DNA from: Macrostomum lignano
Taxonomy: Eukaryota
Direction: 5' to 3'
DNA: 64,000 nucleotides
Assembly: GCA_002269645.1 (NCBI GenBank)
Contig: NIVC01000267.1
Coordinates: forward strand, 1-64,000
A program made the position numbers and the translations under genes. Shown here piece after piece: positions 32,136 through 35,412 of this stretch (position 1 is the first letter of the stretch; every line of letters begins with the position of its first letter). The notes beneath the pieces were generated by a model that saw nothing but the letters and a program-made list of their open reading frames with translations, was not told the DNA's origin and searched no databases.

Positions 32136-32581
32136 TCAATCAATTAATGTTGTCTATACCTTTAACTGATTTACTAATGCCTACAAGAGTGCATAGTTTG
32201 AACCAAAAGCTAGTTTGCGGTTTCCCCGGACAGATTATCATAGAAAGAAATCAACTTGATATTCCCAAAGACGGATTAGCGGAGAAGGGACAGTTTGCGG
32301 TTTCCTCAGGCAGATTTTCCAAGATAGAAATGTCAGGCTTTCCATTTCGTTGGGGAGTAAAGAAAGACAGCAAGCATCCCCCGATAGCAAGCATCCACCC
32401 CAGATAGCAAGCATTCCCCAGACAGCAAGCATTCCCCAGAACACTGCTGAACACCCCAGTGTTAGGGTTAGAGTTAGTGTCTGGGGAGTTAGTTACAGTT
32501 TGCGCTTTCCCCAGAAATATTTTCCAAGAAAACTGAATGCACTTTTATTGGACATAATGGCAGTGCGATGAGACAATCCTG

Positions 32582-32614
<33 letters not shown>

Positions 32615-32617
32615 GTC

Positions 32618-32685
<68 letters not shown>

Positions 32686-32861
32686 TGACTGACTGACTGG
32701 CAGACATTAGAAACCAACATGATGTTCCCCAGACAGATTTTCCAAGAAATCTATATGCACTTTCCAAAGACAGATTGGCCGTGAGACAGTTTGGGCAAAC
32801 AGCAAACAGCAGCATACGTTTTATTAGATAGACGAAATGAAATAAAAAAATTTTTTTCGGC

Positions 32862-34115
32862 GCGAAAATTTTCTAAGTCAAAATAATTTTGACACTTAGA
32901 GAAATTTCACATTTCTCGAGAGCGTCCCCAAGAATTAAACTAGGGTTAGGGTTAGGGTTAGGGTTAGTGTATTGTTAGGGTTAGTGTATTGTTAGGGTAT
33001 TGTTACTATAAATATCGTTTATGTTACTATAAATAGACAGTACAAACGGTCATCAGCATCAGCATGGTCATCATCATCATCATCATATTTATAGATGGTT
33101 ATTACTATATATAGCCGACTAATATATATATTTATAGATGGTTGCTACTATATATAGCCGATTATTATATATTTATAGATGGTTTTTACTATATATAGCC
33201 GCGTTAGTCTATTTATATCGCTTAATTACTATAATTAGTAGTCTATGTTACTAATTATGGATGTTGTTACTAAAAATATAATTGCATACTCGTCCCTAAG
33301 AGATATTTGACCTTACACTCGCTAATATTTACTACTAGTTGTCTATGTGTCTAACCTATCGTATATATCATCAACTCGTCTCTATATCTCTTAGGGACGA
33401 GTATGCAATTATATTTTTAGTAACAACATCCATAATTAGTAACATAAACGCTATTTATAGTAATAAAGCGATATAAATAGACTAACGCGGCTATATATAG
33501 TAAAAACCATCTATAAATATATATTAGTCGGCTATATATAGTAGCAACCATCTATAAATATATATATTAGTCGGCTACATATGGTAACAACCATCTATAA
33601 ATAGACAGACACACACATAATAACGAATGGAGAGCTAAAATCTTGTAGCCAATTATAGTAACAGTTGCTAATAATAGAATCGATATCTCTTACCCCTACA
33701 TCCATCACTTTGTTTGAATGGAGGGATGGATAGACAAATGGATGCTAACCGACACTAGTTAGTACTTTAGTCTATGGTAATCTATCTATCTATGTTAGAT
33801 AGTTTATGTTTGTCTCTTCTGTTTCTTCTAATACTGCTGCTGTTAATCAAACCAACCGGCTGGCTGGCTGGCTGGCTGACTGTCTGACTAAACAATAAAC
33901 ACTAGTAGTACTCATATAGCATACCGATTGACTAACTGACTAACTAACTAACTAACCCATCCAATCCAACTATTACTCGAATAATTATTCACAACCCCAA
34001 CCCAACCACCTACCTGTCACAGCCTAGTTTTTTTTCTGGGGGACCGCTGCGCTAGCTCGAGAAATGTGAAATTTCTCTAAGTGTCAAAATTATTTTGACT
34101 TAGAAAATTTTTCGC
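32862..34115. repeat. Nested inverted-repeat structure with TTAGGG repeats and a ~220-bp-arm AT-rich palindrome (copy 2: ~52333-53664)
   Basis: Outer ~59-bp IR 32862-32920 / 34056-34115; TTAGGG run 32941-32967; inner arms 33087-33306 / 33384-33602 with a 77-nt loop. Confidence 0.92.
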
Positions 34116-35412
34116 ATAAATTTTTTTTTCTCTATTAGGATGCCTGCTGTATGAGGGATGCCTACTATCTGGGGATGCCTGCTGTATGAGGGATGCCTAC
34201 TATCTGGGGATGCCTACTATCTGGGGGGTGCTTGCTATCTGGGGGATGCTTACCATCTGGGGGGTGCTTACTATCTGGGGGATGCTTACTATCTGGGGGA
34301 TGCTTACTATCTGGGGGATGCTTACTATCTGGGGGATGCTTACTATCTGGGGGATGAATCTTCTTCTTCATACTAATCTGTATGGGGAACCGCGGTGTGA
34401 TATCTTGGAAACTCTGCGTGGATAAACTGCAAGTAGTATACTGTGTAAACAAACGAATCGTGTGACTATGTTTACAGTATCGAGGTCGTGGAATCGCAGT
34501 AGCAACGCACTAGCAGCAATAACAAGTATTGTATCGATTCACTGATGCTTAGTATGATATATATTCCAATGGATTTATTTGTAGCGGATTTGCCGCCTTT
34601 GCCGCCACCGACTGCAGCCTGTTGGTGAAACGTGAGAAGCAATTATCGATTTGGAGAGAATTGTCACCAAGCTGACTCGCTGGCACGCGTGAGAGCGCAA
34701 TAGACTGTGAGTGGGCATGGGACGTGGCGTAACGCTACACCATCGCGCGCAGCGTCTGTTGTTGTTGCTGTTAGAATGAGCGACTGAGCTGTAGAAAAAA
34801 AAAACAACCTCGATCTAAGACTTGGCGTGAGATGGTGTGGGGTATCGCTACACCATCGCGCAGCGCCTGATGCTGATGTTGCTAGAATGAGAGGCCTAGT
34901 TGACGGATTTTGTACAGGCCTTGGTGTCTGATCCATGGCGGAAAGAATAGAATGGAGTGCTAATCTGAGCCAGTTATTTTTATCTCGCTCAATCTCAACT
35001 TTTAACATCCTTCCCCCCCCCTCCCCCGTTCTTTCCTATCGACTCGCGACTGCCATAGACAAAGTATTTTCTTCTCGTTTTTCGTTCCCCTCTGAATGTC
35101 TACCCCAGCATAGTATGAGCTCGCATCAAAATATGCTTTCAGCCAATATGAAGGAACGGGGGCGAAATGGGTGTTAAAAGCAAAAAATCAAGCGAGATAA
35201 AAAATATCTCACCAATGTTTAACCAATGTTAAAGCATACGAAGTCAAACCGCCAGAGTGTTAAATTATATAGGTCAAAACGCCAGTATTAAAGCATACGA
35301 GGTCAAAACCCCACCACTAAAGCACGAAGGGGGGGATTAAAACATCAATGTGTTAAGACATAGGAGTACATCAACCAAGTACACCAATCAATTGCGTCAG
35401 CCATGTACAATA

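Follow-up and report, generated by a model that had tools for sequence, protein, structure and literature searches.

The window, that is, the whole stretch of 64,000 nucleotides from Macrostomum lignano contig NIVC01000267.1 that was analysed, contains an element with a unit of about 20 kb in two head-to-tail copies (15876-36373 and 36364-56422). The sequence ACAATTTTGT is common to all three element junctions. The element is laid out as follows.

15876-15885, forward strand: left attachment core ACAATTTTGT
15886-36373, forward strand: element copy 1, about 20.5 kb, derived by deletion and lacking the recombinase gene
34892-34908: deletion scar, where longer copies hold a Tudor-like gene region and a recombinase-like gene
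36364-36373, forward strand: core at which the right end of one tandem copy meets the left end of the next, predicted to be the junction of the circle
36374-56422, forward strand: element copy 2, with an internal deletion that differs from that of copy 1
about 52339-53900 (also delimited as 52339-53660), forward strand: second palindrome block, with its hairpin at 52626-53143
56413-56422, forward strand: right attachment core, after which host sequence resumes as in the empty alleles

The left host flank was found in five genomic copies, three of them empty and two filled. Each of the three empty alleles carries a single core and reads straight into the sequence that follows position 56422, and insertion is thus core-mediated. 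Host-side matches to the left end numbered 14; among the 11 well-registered ones that were counted (three degraded ones were left out), the junction showed TTTTGT in nine and the same motif with one mismatch in two. The right ends retain the element's own AATTTTGT-type sequence, and TTTTGT is also found there. The attachment sequence is a recombination core and not a target duplication. A host C2H2 zinc-finger protein gene, which we take to be INSM/IA-1-like, lies 7 kb from the insertion (7808-8713, forward strand).

The tandem copies have diverged (980 of 998 positions are identical in the first kilobase) and contain different internal deletions; their hairpins agree at 516 of 518 bases. Because the copies differ in both sequence and deletions, the pair probably arose by a second molecule entering the core of the first one. 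The resulting junction mimics that of a circle, the circle itself being a prediction.

Several further repeats and reading frames were located inside the element. Arrays of a 21-bp TGACTGGTGATGTGACC repeat occupy 17197-18269, 25570-27172, 37686-37981 and 44776-46586. Even the shortest copies retain the one beside the left end, which may therefore act as a second cis element. A 13/54/67-bp repeat array stands ahead of the right end (35414-36181 and 55286-56229), and an inverted copy of its repeat sits just inside the right end. The element also contains a 293-aa acidic ORF (19000-19881, reverse strand) and a 231-bp tandem repeat (21792-23023). The segment missing from the window copies encodes a Tudor-like domain in other copies (L011:5586-6041 and L015:1520-1864, both reverse strand); the match has an E value of about 1e-4, just below the Pfam cut-off. 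It is possible that this Tudor-like gene is cargo acting on host silencing.

The sequence-only reading had described a three-level nested palindrome at 32350-34360, within copy 1. The block was confirmed as an internal part of a larger integrating element, separate from the integration junction, and its nested repeats, with arms of about 220 bp, a 77-nt spacer, an outer inverted repeat and opposed 18-bp arrays, were recovered.

32365-32440, forward strand: 18-bp minisatellite array, a genome-wide repeat
32865-32920, forward strand: left copy of the outer inverted repeat (56 bp), which includes two small dyads and is 85-100% identical in other copies
32941-32998, forward strand: TTAGGG run, its G-strand pointing toward the hairpin
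33004-33280, forward strand: seven TACTAWAWW repeats, candidate initiator sites
33086-33306, forward strand: left arm of the hairpin, ending in the conserved core CCCTAAGAGATAT (33294-33306)
33307-33383, no strand: spacer between the arms, 77 nt, 65% AT, unstructured, inverted in the C1387 copy
33384-33603, reverse strand: right arm of the hairpin
33413-33660, reverse strand: five further TACTAWAWW repeats
about 33990-34014, forward strand: degenerate C-rich tract; other copies have CCCTAA repeats on the same side
34056-34111, reverse strand: right copy of the outer inverted repeat (56 bp); of the two copies, short elements most often retain this one
34138-34356, reverse strand: 18-bp minisatellite array, replaced by CCCTAA-derived arrays in several short copies

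The arms pair over 153 nt at 95% and 66 nt at 98% identity. The predicted fold of the hairpin has an energy of -205 kcal/mol (z = -36), and none of 100 shuffled sequences folded equally well. Direct repeats are present in the arms as had been noted, with a unit of 41-43 bp in 2.7-2.8 copies per arm and not three units of about 45 bp. The TTAGGG run on the left and the degenerate C-rich tract on the right were both located; elsewhere, 18.3 kb of copy 1 contains no TTAGGG or CCCTAA. The outer inverted repeat is itself a hairpin, with a CTAAGTCAAAATAATTTTGACACTTAG dyad inside, but extends over 56 bp at 100% identity where about 59 bp had been given. The 18-bp repeats do face each other in opposite orientation, but this third level of nesting turned out to be a host minisatellite that is not specific to the element: a 28-nt (dimer) pattern had 8,328 exact matches in the genome (control, 0), and contig depth over the unit was about 1,000-fold that of neighbouring sequence. 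This minisatellite, with the 18-bp unit CCCCAGATAGCAAGCAT, is dispersed over the genome in great abundance. The TACTAWAWW motif matched 12 times in the block versus once in the remaining 19.7 kb of copy 1. An Rfam search of 32000-34600 gave no matches, and in the datasets listed, none of which is recorded as RNA, the hairpin bins had a contig depth comparable in magnitude to that of the flanks.

The block lies 1.2 kb upstream of a gene whose product is a P-loop protein with both Walker motifs (A and B) and a stretch that resembles motif C. The gene consists of three exons.

30878-31661, reverse strand: helicase exon 1, a low-complexity ORF of 263 aa
28631-30690, reverse strand: helicase exon 2, with a ferredoxin-like domain, a region that is helical and rich in Cys, and the motifs Walker A (GPPGVGKT) and Walker B (MFIDE)
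28236-28517, reverse strand: helicase exon 3, with the motif C region

Both introns (30691-30877 and 28518-28630) have GTGAGT..CAG ends and are in frame, so that the joints are splice-compatible, and the spliced product comprises about 1,040 aa. Each intron was skipped in contigs of two of the three runs guessed to be RNA (all from one study); on this ground, some family copy is probably transcribed. A Foldseek search with a protein model from a sister family returned papillomavirus E1, AAV Rep and B19 NS1 as its top 10 PDB matches and NS1/Rep proteins among its viral matches, and the Atlas neighbours of the helicase were CRESS-like clusters. A second structural aligner ranked generic AAA+ ATPases and SF3 helicases equally (Z 10-11). 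Judged by these models, the protein is an SF3-type helicase, an assignment that the second aligner resolves only to the AAA+ level.

The model of the helicase N-domain is weak (pLDDT 58) and shows a ferredoxin-like fold, for which Foldseek gave no match at E<=0.001. Its matches to HUH folds (SIRV1 ORF119, presumably a Rep, with Z 6.8, rmsd 2.5 and 85 aligned positions, and an IS200-type transposase with Z 6.6) tie with generic ferredoxin folds. Sequence searches against Pfam, PHROG, NCBIfam and PDB left the domain unnamed. Across nine sequences, no His or Tyr was invariant, and HUH motif II and YxxK motif III, taken as defined in the accessible part of PMC6668415, were absent. The domain occupies the position of an origin-binding domain, and a conserved Cys cluster separates it from the helicase domain. 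The absence of an invariant His or Tyr fits a non-cutting origin-binding domain such as that of polyoma- and papillomaviruses (PMC6668415, same part).

A second gene, which both window copies have lost, lies near the right end in other copies of the element, with long open frames on C2093, C157 (two), C228 and C4612. In these five sequences, R, K, R and Y are invariant in recombinase order, and the position of the catalytic His is not His. Those Atlas neighbours that have a family assignment were integrase, ResT/TelK and NDC10 clusters, all with the tyrosine-recombinase fold; the ResT/TelK cluster, with a score of 0.90 (100 of 256 features), was tied with integrase clusters. No sequence match was obtained in Pfam, PHROG, NCBIfam or PDB, and none to DUF3504. 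Motif and Atlas evidence are leads that point to a tyrosine-recombinase-like gene. Relatives outside the host are scarce (five proteins among 1.84 billion representatives, and three and two in word-indexed searches), and the viral and metagenome contigs searched yielded no usable loci. Pfam searches of 49 ORFs, covering window copy 1 and segments of three further copies, gave no match to a capsid gene, although spliced or divergent genes could escape, and no match to Polinton-like-virus genes.

We examined 30 copies of the family for the block. It is retained family-wide: both arms and the spacer were present in 23 copies (C772 was counted as a full hairpin from BLAST alone), one arm in two, and none of these parts in five. 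Four pairs of copies are near-identical and maybe allelic, which leaves fewer than 30 independent copies. Complete gene-less elements of 5-7 kb retain both ends, the 21-bp array, the hairpin and the right 56-bp repeat. Six types of hairpin were found, in which ACTAWAAATAG repeats stand at a fixed distance from the inner core CCCTA(A/G)AGATAT, and the length of the arms varies around this core. Over 60 nt, the arms are 77-100% identical within a copy versus 58-75% between types. The arms change in step: 160 of 179 between-type substitutions, which are pairwise counts and not independent events, are mirrored on the partner arm. By this measure, the arms evolve in concert. A type A marker occurred in all four left/right combinations among nine hairpins.

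The spacers, 44-96 nt long and unrelated between types, are inverted relative to each other in four of the five multi-copy types (A, eight to one; B; C; E), and the type D spacer was found in one orientation only (three copies). When the spacers of the six types were folded, 8-171 of 200 shuffles were as good, and only two of the six folded slightly better than the shuffles (8 and 12 of 200). Telomere repeats beside 19 hairpins numbered 51 TTAGGG and 40 CCCTAA on the left, and 3 and 389, respectively, on the right. The 40 left-side CCCTAA come from three copies, and TTAGGG polarity mostly converges on the hairpin centre. The same flank stands on both sides in C172 and C157a (left flank) and in C1045 (right flank), and the left arm of C460 has been partly re-copied from the right arm. 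The block is partly inverted in C157a and wholly inverted in C1811, which is rearranged elsewhere too. In C2362 (L012:1100-3000), the hairpin block is tandemly duplicated, the two units join within the 56-bp repeat, at its inner dyad, and another transposon is inserted just beyond the duplicated block.

The sequence-only reading had taken the block for the fused ends of a linear genome. In this explanation, the circle would be opened at the palindrome, either by cutting of a cruciform or by the recombinase in the role of a telomere resolvase, to give a linear form with hairpin or telomere-like ends. Both centre orientations are also known for parvovirus and poxvirus ends, and the inverted spacers together with the convergent TTAGGG polarity are the parts of the fused-ends model that held. 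Spacer inversion is not decisive by itself, since a spacer can likewise be inverted when long arms recombine in the ordinary way. The copies with one flank on both sides, the re-copied arm of C460 and the protelomerase cluster among the Atlas neighbours of the recombinase point the same way, and the accessible text of PMC13236599 offers a precedent in algal viruses that have an attP and a separate internal telRL site. The centre of the block argues against such an opening. Protelomerases need a palindrome with a self-complementary 6-bp core (PMC3558466, in the part available), and the block has at its centre a spacer of 44-96 nt that is non-palindromic, shows no relation from one type to the next and does not clearly pair with itself; apart from an (AT)n run, copy 1 has no perfect even palindrome longer than 16 bp. 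The helicase N-domain is without the HUH or YxxK residues for nicking hairpin ends, the TTAGGG runs are short and stand about 300 bp or more from the centre (the right side of the window block has none), and no protein-primed polymerase was found among the 49 ORFs. Opening into a linear form is a serious rival, though in our estimate a rather unlikely one.

A different site might be the important one. The recombinase could have a second target in the 56-bp outer repeat and use it to invert or amplify the circle, as happens at FRT in the yeast 2-micron plasmid. The repeat is 85-100% conserved and persists in the hairpin-less copies C135, C10, C926 and C570, many left-side deletions terminate in or beside its inner dyad, and the inversions of the block in C1811 and C157a would agree with such a role. 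We nevertheless judge it improbable, since most short elements have one full copy only, C1811 carries other rearrangements, the repeat shares only AATTTTG with the attachment core, and the conserved arm core and repeats are left unexplained. Little credence is likewise given to a regulatory or segregation element, or a neutral palindrome under ordinary gene conversion, with no role in initiation. Host recombination can convert the arms and flip the spacer of any long inverted repeat, the position 1.2 kb upstream of the helicase gene would suit a regulator, and seven of the 30 copies do without the full hairpin; but gene-less short copies stripped of most else retain the block, and core and spacing are conserved across types that are only 58-75% alike. 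Long inverted arms with internal direct repeats are also what a nested foldback transposon or MITE, inserted into the element by chance, would show, and the sequence-only reading had named this as its alternative, with a genome search as a check. In that search, all 14 arm-motif matches fell on family-bearing contigs, one of which (C2898) was assigned to the family from fewer tests than the others. The position of the block is constant in all copies, no target duplication accompanies it, and arm length varies around a fixed inner core. With no independent dispersed copies bearing target duplications, the foldback explanation was rejected as highly improbable. Matches on C1102 and C31 turned out to be (GAT)n microsatellite and not copies of the block.

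Given that the block is retained by most copies, that its two arms change together and that its spacer is found in both orientations, we lean narrowly toward the block being the replication origin of the mobile element's predicted excised circle. The block is an internal module beside the start of the helicase gene, in which a variable spacer lies between arrays of an AT-rich repeat in inverted orientation. The tyrosine recombinase, supplied in trans for the window copies, would join the element ends at TTTTGT to form the circle. The SF3-type helicase would then use an HUH-like fold that does not cut to bind the arm repeats, and would melt the spacer in head-to-head fashion, like polyoma- and papillomavirus initiators. 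Arm-to-arm strand exchange would maintain the identity of the two arms and turn the spacer round. A possible role of the TTAGGG repeats, suggested by EBV oriP (PMC13223232, in the part available), is to attract telomere proteins of the host. Against the origin stand the seven of 30 copies without a full hairpin, the weak N-domain model, the AAA+ tie, the recombinase that matched nothing in the sequence databases and the sister families in which no comparable long hairpin was detected. Papova-type origins do not typically have arms of 220 bp, an inverting spacer or telomere repeats that converge; these features also fit hairpin ends. Overall, the origin fits the data at least as well as fused ends do.

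Among known systems, polyoma- and papillomaviruses share with the element a conserved Cys cluster between the N-domain and the helicase; the cluster of the element presumably resembles the large-T zinc domain. They also have an SF3 helicase behind a domain without the HUH signature motifs (PMC6668415, in the part available). The element differs by the missing capsid match, its spliced gene of about 1,040 aa and its recombinase-type integration, and its palindrome is far longer and has a variable spacer. Parvovirus/AAV inverted terminal repeats combine an SF3 helicase, a long hairpin, two centre orientations and arm repair. The element likewise has an SF3 helicase and a hairpin with two centre orientations, but this hairpin is internal and not terminal, lies within a 20-kb integrated element and has a large unpaired spacer, and active HUH nickase motifs are absent.

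The remaining comparisons refer to the accessible parts of the papers cited. Phaeoviruses (PMC13236599) resemble the element in tyrosine-recombinase integration via a minimal core and in a separate internal inverted repeat; they are giant viruses with a dedicated protelomerase and a 6-bp-core palindrome, neither of which was found in the element. The dyad symmetry element of EBV oriP (PMC13223232) is also a dyad of repeated sites, with TTAGGGTTA nonamers flanking it. The likeness is one of layout; EBNA1 recruits host ORC/MCM, whereas the element encodes its own helicase. Some Polinton-like viruses (PMC4642659) encode a tyrosine recombinase and a superfamily 3 helicase, but the capsid proteins, packaging ATPase and primase-linked helicase described for them were not found among the 49 ORFs searched. 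Replitrons (PMC10288648) also have short terminal direct repeats; they use an active Y1 HUH transposase and have no helicase or recombinase in the available text, and the element lacks the HUH motifs. Cryptons (PMC3212892) are defined by 4-6-bp terminal direct repeats and no terminal inverted repeats, and the ends of the element agree with this definition: like them, it has 6-bp terminal direct repeats, no terminal inverted repeats and a tyrosine-recombinase-type gene, and the circular intermediate proposed for Cryptons corresponds to the predicted circle. The element differs in its extra SF3-type helicase gene and internal palindromic module (the word 'helicase' has no occurrence in PMC3212892), and its recombinase has R, K, R, Y with the His of the R-H-R-Y tetrad replaced and no DUF3504 match. 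The available part of PMC11071296 holds nothing bearing on the element. No description of the element was found in the freely available papers searched.

Divergent sister families that pair a helicase with a recombinase-like gene were found on C150, C283, C957, C1267 and C1024 (loci L032, L035 and L037-L042). In 31 stretches from these families, no comparable long hairpin with telomere repeats was detected; the hairpins present were only short or not tied to an element. The palindromic module may thus be specific to the family of the window element. The C150 copy has short hairpins between its helicase and recombinase-like genes. DUF3504 (Crypton-type) ORFs were seen near two sister copies, outside the shared stretch (L033:1219-2196 and L035:2249-3373). 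A double-jelly-roll-like ORF near the C957 copy (L040:7297-8355, reverse strand, E 2e-4) probably belongs to a neighbouring Polinton; it lies outside the stretch shared with C1267 and was not counted.

The tyrosine-recombinase DNA transposons of animals are thought to move as non-replicating circles, and initiators of the large-T/E1 type are known from capsid-bearing viruses. It is quite possible, though not probable, that the families found here represent a class of capsid-less integrating episomes of animals that has not yet been described. Its members would be moved by a recombinase and copied by a large-T/E1-like helicase from a palindrome flanked by telomere repeats, perhaps opened into hairpin ends; several divergent families would coexist in the genome of one flatworm, a laboratory species, at least one of them spliced and recently mobile. 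If true, an element that unites the recombinase and initiator types, and for which a defined attachment core and a putative origin are known along with alleles of both kinds (empty and filled) and spliced transcripts, would add a self-copying integrating class to animal genomes and would bear on how the replicons of small DNA tumour viruses arose from rolling-circle ancestors.
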